The notes under the pieces were generated by a model that was not told where the DNA came from, did no database searches, and saw nothing but the letters and a program-made list of their open reading frames with translations. This document shows, piece by piece, positions 2,985 through 64,000 of a stretch of 64,000 nt of DNA; position 1 is the first letter of the stretch; every line of letters begins with the position of its first letter. The position numbers and the translations under genes are program-made. The DNA comes from an uncultured Chloroflexia bacterium (GTDB lineage Bacteria > Chloroflexota > Ktedonobacteria > Ktedonobacterales > Ktedonobacteraceae), in NCBI GenBank assembly GCA_963736995.1, contig CAVTRB010000007.1, positions 623,884 to 687,883 on the forward strand. Direction: 5' to 3'.

Positions 2985-3410
2985 ATGGCTCGCAGAAGGA
3001 GGCAGGGAGAACGAGTGACAAAACAAATATTAGTCGTTGACGATAAAAGTGAACTGCTGCACCTGATGCGAAGGGTGCTGGAAGATGAACAATATCATGT
3101 CTCTATCCTGCAAGAGGGGAAAGAGGCATTTATGCAAGTAAAAAGTCAATTACCTGATCTGCTCATTCTCGATTTGCGGCTGGGCGATATTTCTGGTCAG
3201 GACATTCTGAAGCAGTTGAAAGATGACCTCGTGACCTGCGATATCCCCGTAATCGTCTATACTGCCGCCGTGCTCGAAGCCGAAGAGGTCACAAGGCTCA
3301 TCACCAGCTACCCCGGACACTATCGAAGTGTGTACGTCGTCCAGAAACCGTTTGAGCTGGATAGCCTGTTGGACCTGGTGCAGCAAGTTCTCAACGAGCC
3401 TGTACGTTAG
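2985..3410 (+). CDS. Single-domain response regulator (CheY-like receiver)
   Basis: ILVVDD...LPDLLILDLRLGD...VIVYTA...KPF receiver signature. The start is uncertain (a GTG about 11 codons downstream is possible). Confidence 0.85.
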   Translation: MARRRRQGERVTKQILVVDDKSELLHLMRRVLEDEQYHVSILQEGKEAFMQVKSQLPDLLILDLRLGDISGQDILKQLKDDLVTCDIPVIVYTAAVLEAEEVTRLITSYPGHYRSVYVVQKPFELDSLLDLVQQVLNEPVR

Positions 3411-3447
3411 CGTACTGTCAAACCTTACAAAAAATCAAACAGAAAGG

Positions 3448-3714
3448 ATGGTGTCAGGAATGAAATTTGTCTTCGGGCTACTCCTGGGCATTGCACTTGG
3501 TGTACTCACCGGTCTGCTGCTCGCGCCACAGTCGGGCGATGCTACCTTAGCTCAACTGAGCGAACAGGGTATTATGCTGCGCAATCGTACCAGTACGCTT
3601 GGCGACGATCTGAAGACACGCGCCACCGAGGCCATGACTCAGGGCCGCGAAATCTACGATCGCACCAAAGTCGAGCTGACCCAGCGTTACAACCAGACGA
3701 AGGGCCAGTTCTAA
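3448..3714 (+). CDS. YtxH-domain small membrane-anchored protein
   Basis: N-terminal TM segment FVFGLLLGIALGVLTGLLLAPQSG (YtxH signature LLAPxSG), then a helical polar tail. ATG at 3448 or 3460, AAAGGA RBS. Confidence 0.75.
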   Translation: MVSGMKFVFGLLLGIALGVLTGLLLAPQSGDATLAQLSEQGIMLRNRTSTLGDDLKTRATEAMTQGREIYDRTKVELTQRYNQTKGQF

Positions 3715-3734: not shown

Positions 3735-3780
3735 GCAGGTGCAAGCTGACGATCAGCCTGCACCTGCTCTTGTTTTATTT
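3735..3780. terminator. Intrinsic terminator hairpin between convergent genes
   Basis: GCAGGTGCA...TGCACCTGC stem followed by TCTTGTTTTATTT. Confidence 0.6.
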
Positions 3781-4020
3781 GCTCTCATACTGTTTAATAA
3801 GTCGCTCCACCATATTGCCAATATCATGGAGAAGCTGGTGCTCGTAGTCCAGCAAACGGGCCTGTGTCAGATCAAAGTCGCGATTCCCCGGGTCACGTTT
3901 CGCATTCGCCTCAAACTGCTGCGCGACGAGCCGTTTTTTGTTGCCTTGAGTGTGCAGATCTGCGGCAAATGCATGCAAATCTTGCAGCAAGGCATTGAAT
4001 TTCTCTTCACTACCTGGCAT
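3775..4020 (-). CDS. Hypothetical small helical protein (81 aa)
   Basis: Internal ATG at 4020 with GAAGGGAAAG RBS, 17 nt after the upstream CMD gene ends. The longer ORF 3775..4143 would overlap that gene. Confidence 0.55.
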   Translation of the reverse strand: MPGSEEKFNALLQDLHAFAADLHTQGNKKRLVAQQFEANAKRDPGNRDFDLTQARLLDYEHQLLHDIGNMVERLIKQYESK

Positions 4021-4036
4021 AGAATATCTTTCCCTT

Positions 4037-4600
4037 CTACTCACCATTCGTTTTTTGCTGGCCCGGCGTCTCGCCTGCACCCGCTGGTGGCGGAAGAATT
4101 TGCAGCGCATCGGCGAAACGGTTGAAAAAGTTGAACAGGCCAATGACGGTTGTTAGCTCGACCAACTGGTCATCATCGAAATGCAACTGCAATTCATCCC
4201 ACAGGTTCTCGTCCACATCACCGCCGCTGGTCGTCACAATCTCTGCATAACGCAGCGCGACCAGTTCTCGCGTGCTGAACAGGTGGCCATGCACATCTAT
4301 GTGATAGAGCGCGTCCAGCAGTTCCTCACTCACTCCCATCTGCCTTGCCAGGGCAGTATGTGCTGCCATTCAGTAGAAGCAGTTGTTGACCTGCGAGACT
4401 CGTATAGCCAGCAATTCCTTCAATTGCGGCTCAACCGTTCCCTCACGCATCGTTGCCTGCAACAGCGCGAGGCTGTGCCGGGCCAGTTCCGGGCGATGCT
4501 CCATCACCCGAAACAGCAGCTCCATTGTAGACGCACCCGGTATATCATGAACATCTATCTGCACATGCTCAACAGGTGGAATCCGTGACATACTTGGCAT
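4037..4600 (-). CDS. Carboxymuconolactone decarboxylase/AhpD-like protein interrupted by one in-frame TGA (4370-4372): candidate selenoprotein, or pseudogene
   Basis: ORFs 4370..4600 and 4037..4369 are contiguous in one frame: ...RVSQVNNCFY-TGA-MAAHTALARQMGVSEE... The TGA falls where the CMD family C-x-x-C-x-x-x-H motif has its second Cys. Confidence 0.7.
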
Positions 4601-4819: not shown

Positions 4820-5530
4820 ATGTCTATAAGAAAGTATGAGCACATTATGAGCCAGGAACATACAACAAATCAGTCAGAGCAGGCAATGCCCTCGCATCGC
4901 CGCTTCGCGACATACTACGAGCGCGTGAGCAACAACGAGTCGGAACGGCACTATATGGAGCCTCTGCGCTGGAAGTTGATAGCGCGGGCGCGCGGTCTCG
5001 TGCTCGAAGTGGGCGCCGGCAACGGACTCAACTTCGCCATCTACGACCCGGCGCAGGTTGAGCGCGTCGAGGCCATCGAACCCGACTCCACCATGCTGAG
5101 TTATGCTCGCGAGCGCGTACAGGCGGCTCGCGTCCCCATCACGCTTACACAGGCAACAGCAGAGGCGCTGCCCTTTGCCGACGCCACCTTCGACAGCGTC
5201 GTCGTCACCCTCGTCTTCTGTTCTGTAGGCGACCCGCTCAAGGGCTTGCAGGAGATCAGGCGCGTGCTGAAGCCGGGGGGAAAACTGCTGATGATCGAAC
5301 ACGTGCGCTCCGATAATCGCCTCGTGGCACTCATGCAGAGCGCGCTTATCCCACTCACCACCCGTCTTGCCGGCAACTGCCACTGGAACCGCGATACCCT
5401 GCAAACCGTCCGCGACGCCGGTTTCCAGATCAACGACAAACGCGACTACCGCTTGCCTCTCGGCGGCGCTTTCTTGACGCCATACGTTTCGCTGGAAGCC
5501 AGAAAATCCCCCCTCGACCAGAATGCATAG
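4820..5530 (+). CDS. Class I SAM-dependent methyltransferase (Methyltransf_11-like)
   Basis: Motif I VLEVGAGNGLN, post-I acidic residue, LKPGGKLLMIEH. Confidence 0.85.
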   Translation: MSIRKYEHIMSQEHTTNQSEQAMPSHRRFATYYERVSNNESERHYMEPLRWKLIARARGLVLEVGAGNGLNFAIYDPAQVERVEAIEPDSTMLSYARERVQAARVPITLTQATAEALPFADATFDSVVVTLVFCSVGDPLKGLQEIRRVLKPGGKLLMIEHVRSDNRLVALMQSALIPLTTRLAGNCHWNRDTLQTVRDAGFQINDKRDYRLPLGGAFLTPYVSLEARKSPLDQNA

Positions 5531-51429: not shown

Positions 51430-52269
51430 TTACTTTCTCCTCCTGCCTGCGTTACGGCGGCGCACAATGAACTTATCCGTCCTCTTATTGTGACGAGTTT
51501 TGTAACCCAGAGCAGGCTTGCCCCAGGGAGTTTGTGGCTGTCCGCCAATCGGCGAACGGCCTTCACCACCACCATGTGGATGGTCACGTGGGTTCATAAC
51601 GGAACCACGCACAGTTGGACGGCGACCCATATGACGGGCACGTCCGGCCTTGCCGATGCTGATGTTCTCATGATCCACATTGCCAACCTGGCCGATGGTC
51701 GCCATACAGAGAATGTGAACGCGCCGCTGCTCGCCAGAAGGCAGGCGCAAGAGGGCATAATCGCCTTCCTTCGCCATCAACTGCGCTCCGACGCCCGCGC
51801 CACGTGCAAGCTGGCCACCACGTCCTTGCTCCAACTCGATGTTATGAATGGTCGTACCGGTTGGAATGTTCTTCAACGGCAGCGCATTGCCCGGTCGAAT
51901 ATCGGCCTCCGGGCCTGACACCACAGTATCACCAACCTTCAGCCCTACCGGGGCGATGATGTAGCGTTTCTCACCATCACGGTAGAACAGCAGGGCGATA
52001 CGAGCCGAACGATTCGGGTCGTATTCAATAGCCGCGACACGGGCCGGGACACCCGGTTTGTTCCGCTTAAAGTCGATGATGCGGTAGGCGCGTTTGGCGC
52101 CACCGCCGCGATGGCGTGTCGTAATTTTTCCCTGATTATTGCGCCCGGAATGCTTCTTCAAAGGAACGGTCAGCGACTTCTCCGGTTTTGTTTTGGTGAT
52201 TTCCTCGAAAGTCGAGACCGACATGCCGCGACGCCCGGGAGATGTTGGTTTATATTGTCTTACTGGCAT
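51430..52269 (-). CDS. rplB: 50S ribosomal protein L2
   Basis: [14 protein letters not shown]...[10 protein letters not shown]. Confidence 0.98.
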
Positions 52270-52278
52270 TGCTTCTAC

Positions 52279-52575
52279 CTACGCCTTCAATGCTTCAATT
52301 GTCTGGCCCTCCGCCAGGGTCACAATCGCCTTCTTCCACTCGCGAGCTTCGATTGATCGCGGCATGCGTCCACGCAGGTGAATCTTGCGCGGCTTGCCTG
52401 GCATGCGCATGATATTGACCGAAACCACGCGCACGTTAAACATCTGCTCAACGGCGCGGCGGACATCGATCTTGTTTGCCTCCAGGGCAACCCGGAATGT
52501 ATATTTATTCTGCTCCTGCAGCTTCATCGATTTCTCAGTGATGATGCCGTTGCGCAGTACCTCTGTGATCTCCAC
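52279..52575 (-). CDS. rplW: 50S ribosomal protein L23
   Basis: ITEKSMKLQEQNKYTFRV...VNIMRMPGK. Confidence 0.96.
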   Translation of the reverse strand: MEITEVLRNGIITEKSMKLQEQNKYTFRVALEANKIDVRRAVEQMFNVRVVSVNIMRMPGKPRKIHLRGRMPRSIEAREWKKAIVTLAEGQTIEALKA

Positions 52576-52604
52576 AGTTTTTACCTCCTACCTGGCAGCT
52601 GCAG

Positions 52605-53474
52605 CTACTCGTTCTCTTGAGCTGCAATTTCTTCCGACTCGACCCCGGTCTCGGTCTCAGCTTCCGCAGTCGCCTCGGCCTCGGTCTGAACATTTGTCCC
52701 GGATTCACTGGCAGTTGCCTGTTCCTGCTCGTCGGGCGCGGATACTTCCCTAAGGTCGTATTCAGAGCCTGGCAGGCTCTGCGCCTGCGCCCCTCCGTCC
52801 TCATTCGCCAGCCGCTGCGTAGCCTCTTCGGCGCTCAAGCCTTCGCCGAAAACCATCTCAATCCAGCGCACAGTGCTTTCCGGCATAATCAAAGAGTCAT
52901 GCTTCAGCATCTCCACGACGTTAATCGAGGCGACATGCTGTACTTTGGCACTGGGAATGTTGCGCGTCGAAAGAATGATGTTCTCATCACGCTCTGGCAG
53001 CATAATCAGGACATTTTTGCCCTTCTCGGCTACCGCCAGTCGATCCAGCAGGGCCAGCATCTCTTTAGTACGCGGGGTCTCCATGGCCAGGTCTTCAACG
53101 ACGATCAATTGCTCGTTGGCAACTTTGTCCGAAAGGACGGAGCGAATTGCCAGACGGCGCATCTTCTTCGGCACATCATGATGATACGGGTGCGGCCTCG
53201 GGCCAAACACTACGCCACCATGACGGAACTGTGGAGAGCGTGTGCTTCCCTGGCGAGCATGGCCCGTTCCCTTCTGCCGGTATGGTTTCTTATTGCCGCC
53301 CGATACCTCGGCGCGAGTCCTGGTCGAAGCAGTCCCCTGGCGACGATTCACCAGTTGCGCTGTGACAACCTGGTGGAGAACCGCCATATTGGGGTTGACT
53401 CCGAATACCTGCTCGCTCAGTTCGAGCTCTTTTACGGCCTCTCCGGCCATGTTATATACTGTAGTCGAGGGCAT
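52605..53474 (-). CDS. rplD: 50S ribosomal protein L4 with ~75-aa acidic C-terminal extension (289 aa)
   Basis: GGNKKPYRQKGTGHARQGSTRSPQFRHGGVVFGP. The extension begins about aa 211 and runs through REP copy D. Confidence 0.94.
   Translation of the reverse strand: MPSTTVYNMAGEAVKELELSEQVFGVNPNMAVLHQVVTAQLVNRRQGTASTRTRAEVSGGNKKPYRQKGTGHARQGSTRSPQFRHGGVVFGPRPHPYHHDVPKKMRRLAIRSVLSDKVANEQLIVVEDLAMETPRTKEMLALLDRLAVAEKGKNVLIMLPERDENIILSTRNIPSAKVQHVASINVVEMLKHDSLIMPESTVRWIEMVFGEGLSAEEATQRLANEDGGAQAQSLPGSEYDLREVSAPDEQEQATASESGTNVQTEAEATAEAETETGVESEEIAAQENE
52734..52796 (-). repeat. ~62-nt REP-like element, copy D, inside the rplD reading frame
   Basis: Minus strand: GGAGGGGCGCAGGCGCAGAGCCTGCCAGGCTCTGAATACGACCTTAGGGAAGTATCCGCGCCC, translated as GGAQAQSLPGSEYDLREVSAP. 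Confidence 0.85.
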
Positions 53475-53479
53475 TTCGG

Positions 53480-54304
53480 TTACCTCATCACATGCTTCTT
53501 CACTATGAGTAAGCCGCCATTGGCACCGGGTACGGACCCTTTCACCAGCAGCAGGTTACGCTCGGCGTCAGCTTGAATTACTTGCAATCCTTTGATCGTC
53601 ACACGTTCGTTCCCCATGTGACCGGCCATGCGCGTTCCCTTCAGTACGCGGCCCGGCGTAGTGCCGGAACCAATCGAACCAGGAGCACGCAGGCGATCAG
53701 ACTGGCCGTGTGTCTTTGGGCCACCACGGAAGCCGTGGCGTTTGACTCCGCCCTGGAACCCTTTACCTTTGGAGGTACCGACCACATCGATTTCCTCACC
53801 AACGGTAAACAGGTCTGCGCCGAACTGCTTGCCCAGCTCCAGGCCCTCTGCGTTCGCGCCCTCTTGCAAACCCACCTCGCGCAGCACCTTGAATGGCCCA
53901 AGTTCCGGCCCCGGTCGGCGCTGGCGGCTGTTCTGCACTTTCAGCAACTTTTCGATTTGCTTATCTTTTTTCTCTGCGGTAGCGGTAGCGGTTCCTGCTT
54001 CTCCTGCTGCCCCCGTTTCGCCCTCTTTTTTACGCTGCTCTTGCTGGTATGTCTGCAAGCGCCGACGTTGTGCTTTCAGTAATGGCAGGCTGTGGCCTAA
54101 ATGTCCCAGTTCAGCACGAACGGAATGCTTGAGCGTCTTTGGCTCGAAACCAATCTGTACTGCTTCATAGCCATCTCGAGCCGGTGTCTTGATCTGTGTC
54201 ACGACACACGGGCCGACTTCTATCACAGTTACTGGAATGGCTGTGCCATTAGGCCCAAATACCTGGGTCATGCCGACCTTCCTGCCCAATAATGCATTCA
54301 GCAT
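53480..54304 (-). CDS. rplC: 50S ribosomal protein L3 with ~60-aa internal insertion (274 aa)
   Basis: LLGRKVGMTQVF...GTSKGKGFQGGVKRHGF. Inserted Lys/Glu/Gln-rich segment LKAQRRRLQTYQQEQRKKEGE... Confidence 0.95.
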   Translation of the reverse strand: MLNALLGRKVGMTQVFGPNGTAIPVTVIEVGPCVVTQIKTPARDGYEAVQIGFEPKTLKHSVRAELGHLGHSLPLLKAQRRRLQTYQQEQRKKEGETGAAGEAGTATATAEKKDKQIEKLLKVQNSRQRRPGPELGPFKVLREVGLQEGANAEGLELGKQFGADLFTVGEEIDVVGTSKGKGFQGGVKRHGFRGGPKTHGQSDRLRAPGSIGSGTTPGRVLKGTRMAGHMGNERVTIKGLQVIQADAERNLLLVKGSVPGANGGLLIVKKHVMR

Positions 54305-54336
54305 TTCCTCTATCCTCTTTTCTCGTCTCCCTGTTG

Positions 54337-54363
54337 GGCAGGCGCAATGAATTGCGCCCCTAC
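54337..54363 (-). repeat. REP unit GTAGGGGCGCAATTCATTGCGCCTGCC abutting the rpsJ stop
   Basis: The rpsJ TAG stop (54360-54362) is the TAG of the GTAG head. Confidence 0.8.
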
Positions 54364-54677
54364 AGCTTGATCTCGATATCTACTCCAGCGGGCAGATTCA
54401 AACGTGTCAGGGCCTCTACCGTTTTGTTGGTCGGCTCAATAATATCAATCAGGCGTTTATGAGTACGAATCTCAAACTGCTCACGTAAATCTTTGTCAAT
54501 GAACGTCGAGCGCATCACCGTAAATTTGTTGATCTCGGTTGGCAGCGGTACTGGGCCGGAAACTCGTGCGCCCGTCTGCTGCGCCGTATCCACAATCTGC
54601 ATTGCTGACTGATCGAGAATTCGATGGTCGTATGCTTTCAAGCGAATGCGTATGCGTTGTTTTGTCCCTGTTGCCAT
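54360..54677 (-). CDS. rpsJ: 30S ribosomal protein S10
   Basis: ATG 54677 with AAGGAGAAAAACA upstream. [18 protein letters not shown]. Confidence 0.96.
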
Positions 54678-54690
54678 TGTTTTTCTCCTT

Positions 54691-54769
54691 GTAGGGGCGC
54701 AATTCATTGCGTCCGTGTCTGTGAGTTGTATCGTTCCCACAATTTGGGCGCAATTCATTGCGCCCCTAC
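54691..54769. repeat. Convergent pair of REP units in the tuf-rpsJ spacer
   Basis: GTAGGGGCGCAATTCATTGCG ... GGGCGCAATTCATTGCGCCCCTAC. The unit nearest rpsJ ends only 2 nt upstream of its AAGGAG RBS. Confidence 0.85.
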
Positions 54770-54780
54770 TGTCAGCAAAC

Positions 54781-55986
<1,206 letters not shown>

Positions 55987-56079
55987 TTCTGTTTCCCTCG
56001 ATTTGTGCTCAGTGCAAACGTTGTGCGTCAGGGACCTGCACCTTTGCGATGGCACAGATAATGTCTTTTGATTACTTCC

Positions 56080-56152
56080 GTAGGGACCGATAATGAACCT
56101 TTACGAAATCATGCGGCAATTGCGCGCCTACGGGGTCATTATCACGCCCTAC
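56080..56152. repeat. REP-like imperfect palindrome in the fusA-tuf spacer
   Basis: GTAGGGACCGATAATGAACC ... GGGGTCATTATCACGCCCTAC. Confidence 0.7.
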
Positions 56153-56348
56153 GGATAGGACTGGATTTAAAAATGCACAATGCAACTTGCCTGGTTGGCC
56201 TACTCCCTGATTTCGGCTCCGAGGCTATCTGTAGTGCAGGTGCCGATGTATCGAGCACAGCGCCGATTTACCGGCAGGTAAAACCTCTTATCGAAGTAGT
56301 GACTCCCCAGTCTGTATTGCTTGCGCAACGCAGGCTGAGAAGGACATG

Positions 56349-58424
56349 TTAGCGACTTGATTTTGCTATAATTTCGTCAGCGAGATTTCTCGGCACGGGT
56401 TCGTAGTGCGCAAACTCCATAGAGTAGCTGGCACGTCCACTGGTCATGGAACGTAGATCGTTCACATAGCCGAACATTTCGGCGAGGGGAACATGCGCTC
56501 GCACCACATACATCGTTCCCCGGCTCTCCATACCAAGAATGACTCCACGGCGTCGGTTGAGGTCACCGATCACATCTCCATAAAAGTCCTCGGAGGTTGT
56601 CACTTCTACCAGCATCACCGGCTCAAGCAGGATCGGGGCAGCTTTGCGTACAGCCTCGCGAATCGCCAGCGAACCGGCGGTTTTGAAGGCCATTTCGCTT
56701 GAGTCAACCTCATGGTATGACCCGTCATAGAGGGTAGCTTTGACGTCGATCATCGGGAAACCGGCGATGATACCGTTTTCCAATGCCTCTTTAATGCCGT
56801 TTTCTACAGGTCTGATATATTCTTTCGGAATCACGCCGCCAACAACGGCATTGACAAACTCAAAACCCTTGCCGCGTTCACCAGGTGCTACACGAATCCA
56901 CACGTCGCCATATTGACCATGACCACCCGTCTGTCGAACGAACTTGCCCTGGGCCTGGGCTTCACGTGTGATTGATTCACGATAGGCAACCTGTGGGCGT
57001 CCCACATTGGCCTCTACTTTGAATTCGCGGAACATGCGATCCACGATAACTTCCAGGTGCAGCTCGCCCATACCACTGATGATAGTCTGACCGCTTTCTG
57101 GATCGGTATGCACCTGGAAGGTTGGGTCTTCTTCCGCCAGTTTGGTCAGGGCAATCGCCATCTTATCCTGGTCAGCACGGGTCTTCGGTTCGATAGCGAT
57201 CTCAATGACCGGCTGTGGGAAGACGATTGACTCCAGCACAATCGGATGTTGAGCATCACATAGTGTATCACCAGTGAAGGTATTACGCAAGCCCACGGCG
57301 GCGCAGATATCACCGGCGCGAATCTCATCGATGTCTTCACGGTGATTGGCATGCATACGCAGCAGGCGTCCCACACGTTCCGATTTGTCCTTGGTGCTGT
57401 TCTCGATACCCGCGCCCTTGTTCAACGTACCCGAATAGACCCGCAGGTAAGCCAGGCGACCGACGAAGGGGTCGGAGACGATCTTGAACACCAGCGCGCT
57501 GAAGGAGGCATCGTCGCTGACCACGCGTGTCTCAGGAGCACCGGTATCGGGATTGACGCCAACGGGAGCGGGGATATCGAGAGGAGAGGGGAGATAGTCA
57601 ATGACGGCATCGAGCATGGCCTGCACGCCCTTATTCTTCAGCGCGGAACCACAAAGTACCGGCACCAGGGTGCCGGCAATGGTTGCGCGACGGAGGGCCG
57701 CTACCAGCTCCTCGTTTGTAATCTCCTCGCCCTCAAGATATTTGAGGGTCAGCTCCTCGTCTGTTTCGGCGACGCGCTCCACCAGGAACTCGCGGTGCTG
57801 CGCGACCTCGGCGACCATATCGTCGGGTATGGCGGTGTGCTCTGATTTGGTACCCAGGTCATCGGTAAAAATCACTGTCTTCTCATCGAGAAGGTCAACA
57901 AAGCCCTTAAACGCGCTTTCACGACCGATCGGAATCTGAATGGGTACAGGGGCTGCACCCAGGCGTTCGCGAATCATATCGATGGTGCGCCAGAAATCGG
58001 CCCCGATACGGTCCATTTTATTGACAAAACATATACGTGGAACATCATACTTATTTGCCTGACGCCAGACTGTTTCAGATTGTGGTTCCACACCTGCAAC
58101 AGCGTCAAAAACCACGACGCCGCCATCCAGGACACGCAGCGACCGCTCGACTTCCGCCGTGAAGTCGACGTGTCCGGGGGTATCAATGATATTGATGCGG
58201 TTGTCCTGCCAGAAACAGGTAGTAGCGGCAGACGTAATCGTAATGCCTCTCTCCTGCTCCTGCGGCATCCAGTCCATCGTCGCAGCCCCTTCATGCACCT
58301 CACCCATGCGGTGAATCTTCTTTGTGTAGAAGAGAATGCGCTCAGTCGTCGTTGTTTTGCCGGCATCTATATGAGCAATGATACCAATATTGCGAGTTTT
58401 TTCTAACGGGAATTCTCTTGCCAT
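56349..58424 (-). CDS. fusA: Elongation factor G
   Basis: [25 protein letters not shown]. 691 aa. Confidence 0.98.
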
Positions 58425-58433
58425 GATGTAATG

Positions 58434-58904
58434 TTACCAGCGATAATGAGCGAAAGCCTTGTTAGACTCCGCCATTTTATGGGTCTCCTCACGTTTCTTG
58501 ATCGTAGCCCCCTGTCCCGCTGCGGCATCCATCAACTCGTTCGCAAGTTTCTCCGACATCGAGTGGCCTGTGCGTGCGCGAGCAGATTTGATCAGCCAGC
58601 GCATAGCAAGCGCACTGCGGCGCTCACCACGAATGTCGACAGGAACTTGATAGGTTGAACCGCCAACACGACGGGGCTTTACTTCGATAGTAGGCATAGC
58701 GTTCTTCAGCGCCTGCTCAAATACTTCGAGCGGGGGGCGCTTCTGTTTGGCCTCAATGAGATCAAACGCATCATAGATAATGCGCTCGGCAAGGCTGCGC
58801 TTTCCATCAAGCATCAACTTACTGGTAAAGCGGGACACATTCTTGCTCTTGTACTTTGCATCCGGGATATCCGGGCGTTTCACAACTTTTTTGCGCCTTG
58901 GCAA
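58434..58904 (-). CDS. rpsG: 30S ribosomal protein S7
   Basis: TTG 58904 behind AAGAGGAGG. (M)PRRKKVVKRPDIPDAKYKS...AFAHYRW. Confidence 0.94.
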   Translation of the reverse strand: MPRRKKVVKRPDIPDAKYKSKNVSRFTSKLMLDGKRSLAERIIYDAFDLIEAKQKRPPLEVFEQALKNAMPTIEVKPRRVGGSTYQVPVDIRGERRSALAMRWLIKSARARTGHSMSEKLANELMDAAAGQGATIKKREETHKMAESNKAFAHYRW

Positions 58905-59031
58905 GGTCTGCCTCCTCTTAACATAAACACCAGAAAAGGCGTCGAGTTCGATTGGTCGTGGGCAGCCTACCTGATTTCTCAGGGACTCCCCCGGCAATCT
59001 CAACAGACGCCTACACGCGAGTGCCTTTCCA

Positions 59032-59122
59032 TTTCAATCCCAGCTGGGATGGTTAGCGCCTTCAGACGCAGTGGAGAACACCCGACTCTCACCGTTTTCA
59101 ATTCCAGATGGGAAGTTAACCC
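59032..59122 (-). repeat. Pair of CRISPR-repeat-like hairpin elements (period 64 nt) in the rpsL-rpsG spacer
   Basis: Minus-strand reads ...AACCATCCCAGCTGGGATTGAAAT and ...AACTTCCCATCTGGAATTGAAAAC. Same core as the 39911-40015 pair. Confidence 0.6.
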
Positions 59123-59177
59123 TTTTCAGGCTCTTCTCTCTGCAATTACGGTGACGTGCGATATGTCTAATGTTACC

Positions 59178-59630
59178 TTATTTTCTTGCGCCCTTCGCCG
59201 GAGCAGCTCCCTGCCCGGGTTTGGGTCGCTTGGCTCCGTACTTGGAGCGCCCTCTACGTCGTTTCGCCACGCCATCACTGTCGAGTGTGCCTCGCACGAT
59301 ATGGTAGCGAACGCTTGGCAGGTCTTTTACACGCCCACCACGGATGAGCACCACGGAGTGCTCCTGTAAGTTATGCCCTTCCCCAGGAATGTAAGCGGTA
59401 ACTTCCATCTGGTTACTAAGACGAACACGGGCAATCTTGCGCATTGCCGAGTTCGGCTTTTTGGGCGTCATGGTGCGCACCTGAGTGCAGACCCCACGTT
59501 TCTGGGGAGAGCCACGCAGGCGCGAGGTCTCATTCTTCAACGCGTTATATGAATACAGCAGCGCTGGCGCTTTCGACCTCTTTGTTTTGTGCGAACGGCC
59601 CTTGCGGACCAATTGATTGATCGTCGGCAA
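59178..59630 (-). CDS. rpsL: 30S ribosomal protein S12 (150 aa, C-terminally extended)
   Basis: [12 protein letters not shown]...[10 protein letters not shown]...VRYHIVRG. Confidence 0.97.
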
Positions 59631-59678
59631 TGAACGATCCTCCCTAGTTCTTCTTATTCCTCATCCTTATGCACTTTG

Positions 59679-59705
59679 ATAAGGGCGCAATAGGTGCGCC
59701 CTTAT
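59679..59705 (-). promoter_or_regulatory. Perfect 11-bp hairpin (ATAAGGGCGCA / TGCGCCCTTAT, 5-nt loop) between rpoC and rpsL
   Basis: Read directly. No U-tract follows on the minus strand, so it is more likely a processing or attenuation structure than a strong terminator. Confidence 0.4.
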
Positions 59706-59730
59706 CTCCATGTTGCGGATATCTATACTA

Positions 59731-64000
<4,270 letters not shown>

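Follow-up and report, generated by a model that had tools for sequence, protein, structure and literature searches.

On the minus strand of the window, by which we mean the whole stretch of 64,000 nucleotides that was analysed, positions 4600..4037 form a frame of 187 codons, whose sole internal stop is a TGA at 4372..4370 and which ends with a TAG codon at 4039..4037. The two open reading frames listed separately in the preliminary description were thereby confirmed to be one frame, interrupted by this single TGA only. On the minus strand, the codon is flanked as in ...RVSQVNNCFY-TGA-MAAHTALARQMGV, and its longer context is ...LAIRVSQVNNCFY-TGA-MAAHTALARQMGVSEELLDAL.... A second, shorter gene follows on the same strand, and the features of the locus are as follows.

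4037..4600, minus strand: candidate AhpD-like (CMD-family) selenoprotein gene, a single frame with a Pfam CMD match across the TGA and with orthologues
4370..4372, minus strand: in-frame TGA, candidate Sec codon (residue 77 counted from the ATG at 4600, residue 74 from the ATG at 4591)
4358..4381, minus strand: redox motif C-F-Y-U-M-A-A-H (CxxUxxxH), aligned with the CxxCxxxH of PA0269
4340..4356, minus strand: SECIS-like hairpin CUGCC(C)-UGGCA-(A)GGCAG, 13 nt after the TGA, identified by RNAalifold and covariation
3775..4020, minus strand: conserved 81-aa ORF, 16 nt downstream of the candidate selenoprotein gene

The frame contains two in-frame ATG codons on the minus strand, at 4600 and 4591, which are three codons apart. 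Because the N-termini of the orthologues read M[S/P]RIPP, the ATG at 4591 is the likelier start, giving a protein of 184 aa with Sec74. The product size of 187 aa given previously is, thus, correct for the frame counted from the ATG at 4600 but is to be reduced to 184 aa for the likelier start.

When Cys was put at the position of the TGA, the Pfam model CMD (PF02627) matched residues 37-119 with 61.6 bits against a cutoff of 23. The match spans the TGA, in agreement with the earlier assignment of this codon to the second Cys of CxxCxxxH in a CMD/AhpD domain. The model of the AhpD core domain (TIGR00778) was also matched above its cutoff (54.4 bits vs 27.8), and that of the peroxidase-related enzymes (TIGR01926), which is the one assigned to 'AhpD-like' selenoproteins, just below it (70.6 bits vs 81.8), indicating a relative of the latter and not a formal member. 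The scores were below the cutoff for NF053654 (YciW-related (seleno)protein; 86.8 bits vs 310), NF041238 (AhpD_rel_CFYUT; 53.5 bits vs 175), and TIGR00777 (the 'ahpD' subfamily; 18 bits vs 192). None of the curated (seleno)protein HMMs was, therefore, matched at its cutoff and, among the NCBIfam models listed, only the generic core model TIGR00778 was. NF053654 and NF041238, which were the best and fourth-best NCBIfam matches, nevertheless represent Sec/Cys families of the AhpD superfamily. The latter is named for C-F-Y-U-T, to be compared with C-F-Y-U-M in the window protein, and is a model of 357 positions whose match is confined to the C-terminal AhpD part.

The nearest solved structure by sequence was that of PA0269, an AhpD of Pseudomonas aeruginosa (2o4d, 2ijc, and 7xw1; E ~1e-17), in which C-A-Y-C-V-N-M-H aligns column for column with C-F-Y-U-M-A-A-H. 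Residues 26-168 were aligned with 2o4d, the best PDB match, as one domain. PA0269 differs in having Cys instead of Sec, is ~35% identical, and lacks counterparts of the Pro-rich tail and of the ~25 residues at the N-terminus. The fold was assessed using a Cys homologue, P0003, which is 65% identical to the window protein, in place of the window protein itself. Its AlphaFold model (AF2; pLDDT 73.5) was all-helical with the motif at a helix start, and its top matches in the PDB were all AhpD/CMD proteins with TM scores of 0.64-0.82 (the value of 0.82, target-normalised, being for PA0269). The N-terminal half is, thus, predicted by this model to be an integral part of a single domain. The AhpD of Mycobacterium tuberculosis uses a CxxC with a His/Glu relay and reduces AhpC. 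The window protein shares with it the domain core (TIGR00778) and the CxxCxxxH signature, but fails TIGR00777 and has no ahpC nearby.

The supposition that Sec-containing members of the AhpD-like proteins had been reported was verified in the literature, where the family is documented. 'AhpD-like', 'AhpD-like 2', and 'Distant AhpD homolog' are all listed as selenoprotein families (Peng et al. 2016, PMC5029168, Table S3), AhpD-like CxxU selenoproteins of the COG2128/YciW and TIGR01926 types were first described in the Sargasso Sea selenoproteome in 2005, and the family is also included in a 2026 AEM review. For two members in the deep-Sep supplement, from Occallatibacter riparius (29% identity; E=1e-20) and under the accession MCB9421940.1 (22%; E=4e-10), U was aligned on the TGA of the window, so that the Sec position coincides exactly with that of known members. 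The CMD/AhpD fold, the motif N-x-C-x-Y-U-x-x-x-H, and the C-terminal motif F/Y-x-N-R-x-A-D are all shared with the AhpD-like CxxU selenoproteins. The proteins from Ktedonobacteria are, however, only 22-29% identical to these two published examples and are distinguished by a conserved SECIS sequence of their own and by the 81-aa partner gene. They constitute a separate clade, which is restricted to Ktedonobacteria as far as the best 80 loci show.

In a genome scan with one genome per species, the 80 best-scoring loci were taken, ahead of 89 lower-scoring relatives. The best 80 loci were all from the class Ktedonobacteria, and the carriers include Ktedonobacter racemifer DSM 44963 (locus L008, with TGA), K. 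robiniae, Thermogemmatispora carboxidivorans, T. aurantia, T. tikiterensis, four Dictyobacter species, Ktedonosporobacter rubrisoli, strain brp13, and many metagenome-assembled genomes. TGA occupied the position of the second Cys in 81 of the 81 sequences (the window and the best 80 loci), and three residues around it did not vary among them, namely Cys (-3), Tyr (-1), and His (+4). The preliminary description had proposed aligning the orthologues at this codon and looking for disabling mutations in close relatives; the former yielded TGA in 80/80 of the best loci, with TGT or TGC in distant homologues, and the latter yielded none in any orthologue. No second stop was found in codons -48..+92 around the TGA in any of the 81 sequences.

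The mean pN/pS over all pairs was 0.24 for the 48 codons upstream of the TGA and 0.18 for the 92 codons downstream, with an all-pairs mean pS of ~0.75, which is near saturation. For the window and its closest relative (L001), pN was 0.03 and pS was 0.4-0.5 on either side of the TGA. Both halves are, thus, under purifying selection, also in the lineage of the window, and must therefore be translated in frame, so that a pseudogene and a sequencing error are excluded and a split gene becomes very unlikely. UGA-containing orthologues in other species and coding conservation on both sides of the codon, as expected of a selenoprotein gene, were hence found together (TGA in 81/81).

A homology search using the fused protein identified ~150 relatives, nearly all of which are 102-133 aa long and align with just ~55% of the query, at its C-terminal end. 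These short relatives start with 'MAAHTALA...' or 'MSVHTALA...', indicating that gene callers begin at the Met after the same stop, and some of them are RefSeq entries of Thermogemmatispora named 'carboxymuconolactone decarboxylase family protein'. Full-length homologues with 56-65% identity (P0003-P0006 and P0017) have CxxC at the motif, and their DNA has TGT or TGC at the position of the Sec codon. The UGA is, thus, aligned with Cys in these homologues and in PA0269, as in a Sec/Cys pair. In one JGI gene call (P0002), the residue at the Sec position is given as 'W', and the codon in the DNA is TGA. Another close relative (P0013; 139 aa) was observed to be missing ~35 residues around the CxxU, with ...SGTV joined straight to DALYHID..., which may reflect either a genuine deletion or an artefact introduced when a gene caller or assembler skipped the TGA.

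The RNA downstream of the TGA was analysed in an ungapped alignment of 79 nt around this codon. The hairpin noted earlier as UGA-N13-CUGCC-CUGGCAA-GGCAG was located at 4356..4340 just as described and was found to be conserved with covariation among the orthologues. Its commonest form in the orthologues, CUGCCU-UGGCA-AGGCAG, has a stem of 6 bp, and RNAalifold returned the same helix with an additional U-A pair closing a GGC triloop. The hairpin cells of the alignment were paired at 99.2%. Pair 5 was C-G in 62 distinct sequences and U-A in 17, and pair 6, at the top, was U-A in 60, C-G in 16, and C·A in 3, so that compensatory changes occurred at two pairs, spread over several separate clades. 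Neither the observed pairing nor the covariation was matched by any of 500 shuffles, and the pairing fell to 22-50% when the 3' arm was slid by one to three columns. Parsimony on a rough neighbour-joining tree, which rests on ~129 residues only, gave approximate numbers of ~9 independent exchange events for pair 5 and ~7 for pair 6.

These pair exchanges couple synonymous changes in Ala (GCC/GCU) and Leu (UUG/CUG) codons with the residue at +9, which is Arg (AGG), Lys (AAG), Gly (GGG), or Glu (GAG). The synonymous-site entropy in codons +4..+10, with conserved residues and with the variable codon +9 left unscored, was 0.38, 0.10, 0.77, 0.79, 0.10, and 0.0 bit, compared with values elsewhere in the gene of ~1 bit for two-fold codons and of 1.5-2.3 bits for those that are four- or six-fold. 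The hairpin region is under selection at the RNA level, beyond that at the protein level. It provides a natural example of an RNA signal shaping a protein, in that the R/K/G/E residue covaries with synonymous sites and the SECIS stem is kept.

In the bSECIS model, the loop is 3-9 nt, the upper stem is 4-16 bp, the distance from the UGA to the loop is 16-37 nt, and a G is present in the first two loop positions, following the pattern N1-G-[G/U]-N-N2 (PMC13188914). Compared with the consensus of Zhang & Gladyshev, as given in the same source, the orthologue hairpin is alike in its 6-bp stem, its U-GGC-A loop, its distance of 19 nt from the UGA, and its position immediately 3' of the UGA inside the coding sequence, and it differs in being short, with energies in isolation of -5.3 to -10.4 kcal/mol. 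The orthologue family, thus, falls within the ranges of the model, and the window copy agrees with it in part. In the latter, the top pair is a mismatched C·A, and the stem is reduced to 5 bp with an energy of -5.9 kcal/mol, compared with -8.0 kcal/mol for the common form. The first G is at loop position 3, so that the rule for the loop fits only when the inner U-A pair is counted. This RNA was at first called weakly compatible with a bacterial SECIS; its hairpin fits the model in the orthologues, and the window copy is a slightly weakened variant.

L001 and L002 are the two sequences closest to the window, and the three make up the sole clade in which the top pair of the SECIS is broken, being C·A and not U-A or C-G. 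The weakened variant is evidently tolerated, and it may cause a lower efficiency of read-through in this lineage. An alternative hairpin pointed out earlier, GGCAG-CACAUA-CUGCC, is present in the window but was not conserved among the orthologues, where 72.9% of its cells were paired, as in the shuffles, and it was discarded. A search of Rfam found no family matching the hairpin at gathering thresholds, and permissive thresholds gave only a chance match to an lncRNA.

In four Cys-form homologues, the hairpin columns make 3, 4, 3, and 5 of the six pairs. The value of this control is limited by the similarity of the amino acids: the hairpin lies within a conserved part of the coding sequence, and 3-5 of the six pairs in the Cys forms arise from amino-acid constraint alone. 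At the locus of P0003 (L089, 518-1054, with TGT), 5/6 of the pairs are kept in the form CUGUUC-UGGCC-AGACAG, as would be expected if the change between Sec and Cys was recent.

The machinery for Sec incorporation was searched for at the locus and in its orthologues. A tRNA scan of the window and 60 loci detected no tRNA-Sec, and E. coli SelA, SelB, and SelD used as tblastn queries on the window and the 80 loci returned only EF-Tu, which is the product of tuf (54781..56055) and the sole match for E. coli SelB; selA, selB, selC, and selD were, thus, absent from the 64-kb window and from ~1.2 Mb of orthologous flanks. This tuf gene lies in a core translation/transcription cluster (51430-63999, minus strand) comprising rpoC, rpsG, fusA, tuf, rpsJ, rplC, rplD, and rplB, the upstream part of rpoC running past the window end. 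Among the carriers, K. racemifer DSM 44963 is recorded as SelD+, SelA+, and SelB+ (Peng et al. 2016, PMC5029168, Table S1), and five known selenoproteins are assigned to it in Table S2 of the same study. No statement on selenoproteins of Ktedonobacteria was found in the supplementary material of Secmarker, Mariotti 2015, Lin 2015, BSepDB, and deep-Sep, and a full-text literature search for Ktedonobacter with selenocysteine or seleno- returned nothing specific. A crude scan of ~1.3 Mb for other in-frame TGAs with a bSECIS-like hairpin gave off-frame noise only.

Taken together, the class-wide TGA among the best 80 loci, the Cys-form homologues, the purifying selection, the covarying hairpin, and the standard genetic code strongly support the selenoprotein reading put forward in the preliminary description, and the locus is very probably a true selenoprotein gene of the AhpD-like CxxU kind with recoding dependent on SelB and a SECIS, as judged from sequence comparison. 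The intact gene would encode an AhpD-like (CMD, COG2128/TIGR01926-type) thiol-selenol oxidoreductase of ~184 aa with the motif C-x-x-U-x-x-x-H. The UGA at 4372..4370 would be decoded by Sec-tRNA(Sec) brought by SelB, which the hairpin 13 nt downstream, having the 6-bp stem and the U-GGC-A loop in the orthologues, would recruit; such SelB-dependent decoding presumably operates also in the organism of the window. The Cys-x-x-Sec would act as the redox pair, with Sec at the position of the second active-site Cys. By analogy, the chemistry could be that of a peroxide or disulfide reductase, in which the nucleophilic attack would be made by Sec and the resolution by Cys.

The rival that survives best is SelB-independent read-through by a near-cognate tRNA for Trp, Cys, or Arg. 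The hairpin might stimulate this read-through, and the product would be a full-length protein free of selenium. This rival is consistent with the conservation and selection data, which demand read-through only and not Sec insertion, but we consider it improbable. The codon is at the catalytic Cys of a redox motif for which Cys homologues exist, making a classic Sec/Cys pair; the geometry of the hairpin is that of a SelB-type bSECIS; SelA, SelB, and SelD are reported for at least one carrier, K. racemifer (PMC5029168); relatives in the catalogued family have U at the same site; and Cys could be encoded more simply by TGC.

It is still less probable that the gene is split, with re-initiation at UGA-AUG and with an N-terminal polypeptide of ~73 aa and a C-terminal one of ~110 aa forming one CMD fold, as might be thought from the annotation of the C-terminal part alone by gene callers and from the ATG that directly follows the TGA in 72/81 sequences. 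The codon at this position is GAG (in five sequences), CAG, ACT, CTG, or ATA in the other nine, and separate initiation of the C-terminal half is very unlikely because these orthologues lack a start codon there. A Met at this position is also present in the Cys-form homologues, which, like all solved relatives, are single-chain proteins; moreover, the break would fall within the CxxC, and the covarying hairpin would be left unexplained. That the gene is a pseudogene with a nonsense mutation, or that TGC/TGT was miscalled in sequencing, is suggested by nothing but the bare presence of the stop codon and is refuted by the same TGA in 80 independent assemblies and by the purifying selection on both halves, including that since the split from L001, with no further stops or frameshifts. 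Genome-wide reassignment of UGA to sense, to which only the one JGI gene call with W would lend itself, is likewise refuted, as TGA is the ordinary stop of rpoC, a DAO/GCV_T gene, and a BNR-repeat gene in the window and ends 25 of the 81 orthologues besides occurring inside them. The genetic code is, thus, the standard one, and in these 25 orthologues the TGA would therefore have two meanings inside one gene, apparently told apart by the hairpin.

Returning to the selenoprotein reading, its mechanism itself is not new and, because CxxU AhpD/CMD selenoproteins and the use of Sec in at least one species of Ktedonobacteria were already known, the proteins described here represent a well-defined class-wide subfamily of the known CxxU AhpD kind. 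The best 80 loci show that one selenoprotein has been kept class-wide in Ktedonobacteria, which are aerobic bacteria with large genomes from soil and geothermal environments, and its retention across the class implies a class-wide requirement for selenium. The public entries, including those of RefSeq for Thermogemmatispora, are in systematic error, as they represent a C-terminal fragment of 102-133 aa without the catalytic motif.

The analysis also brings to notice the uncharacterised protein of 81 aa encoded downstream. A homologue of its ORF is in the same position in 77/80 of the best loci and was also found directly after the Cys-form gene in L087 (2259-2630). The ORF is probably co-transcribed with the selenoprotein gene, and its product may act together with the selenoprotein. 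The 81-aa protein has no match in Pfam or NCBIfam, and a homology search returned only relatives annotated as 'hypothetical protein'; it is helical and has the conserved motif ...YLH.RG.KT...QF..NA.KD.SNR.FDL.Q.RMLDYQHH.WHEIGN.... No AhpC homologue was found in the window or within ±10 kb in the best 80 loci, and AhpC may, therefore, not be the substrate. Reversion to Cys was seen in 0/81 of the species-level sequences (the window and the best 80 loci). It is conceivable, although we put this forward only tentatively and think it rather doubtful, that the selenoprotein and the linked 81-aa partner make up an undescribed two-component selenol redox module with a substrate other than AhpC and with Sec effectively fixed. 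If this were true, the module would be a marker of obligate selenium use in a whole bacterial class of aerobic soil Chloroflexota.

Further neighbours are shared among the loci. A YtxH-like gene and a gene for a CheY-like response regulator are located downstream in convergent orientation in more than 50 loci, and a gene for a class I SAM methyltransferase is located upstream in divergent orientation in 16. Because these neighbours and the 81-aa gene are shared, the locus is orthologous across the class. In the window, the coordinates for the response regulator, YtxH-like, and methyltransferase neighbours are 2985-3714 and 4820-5530, both on the plus strand.
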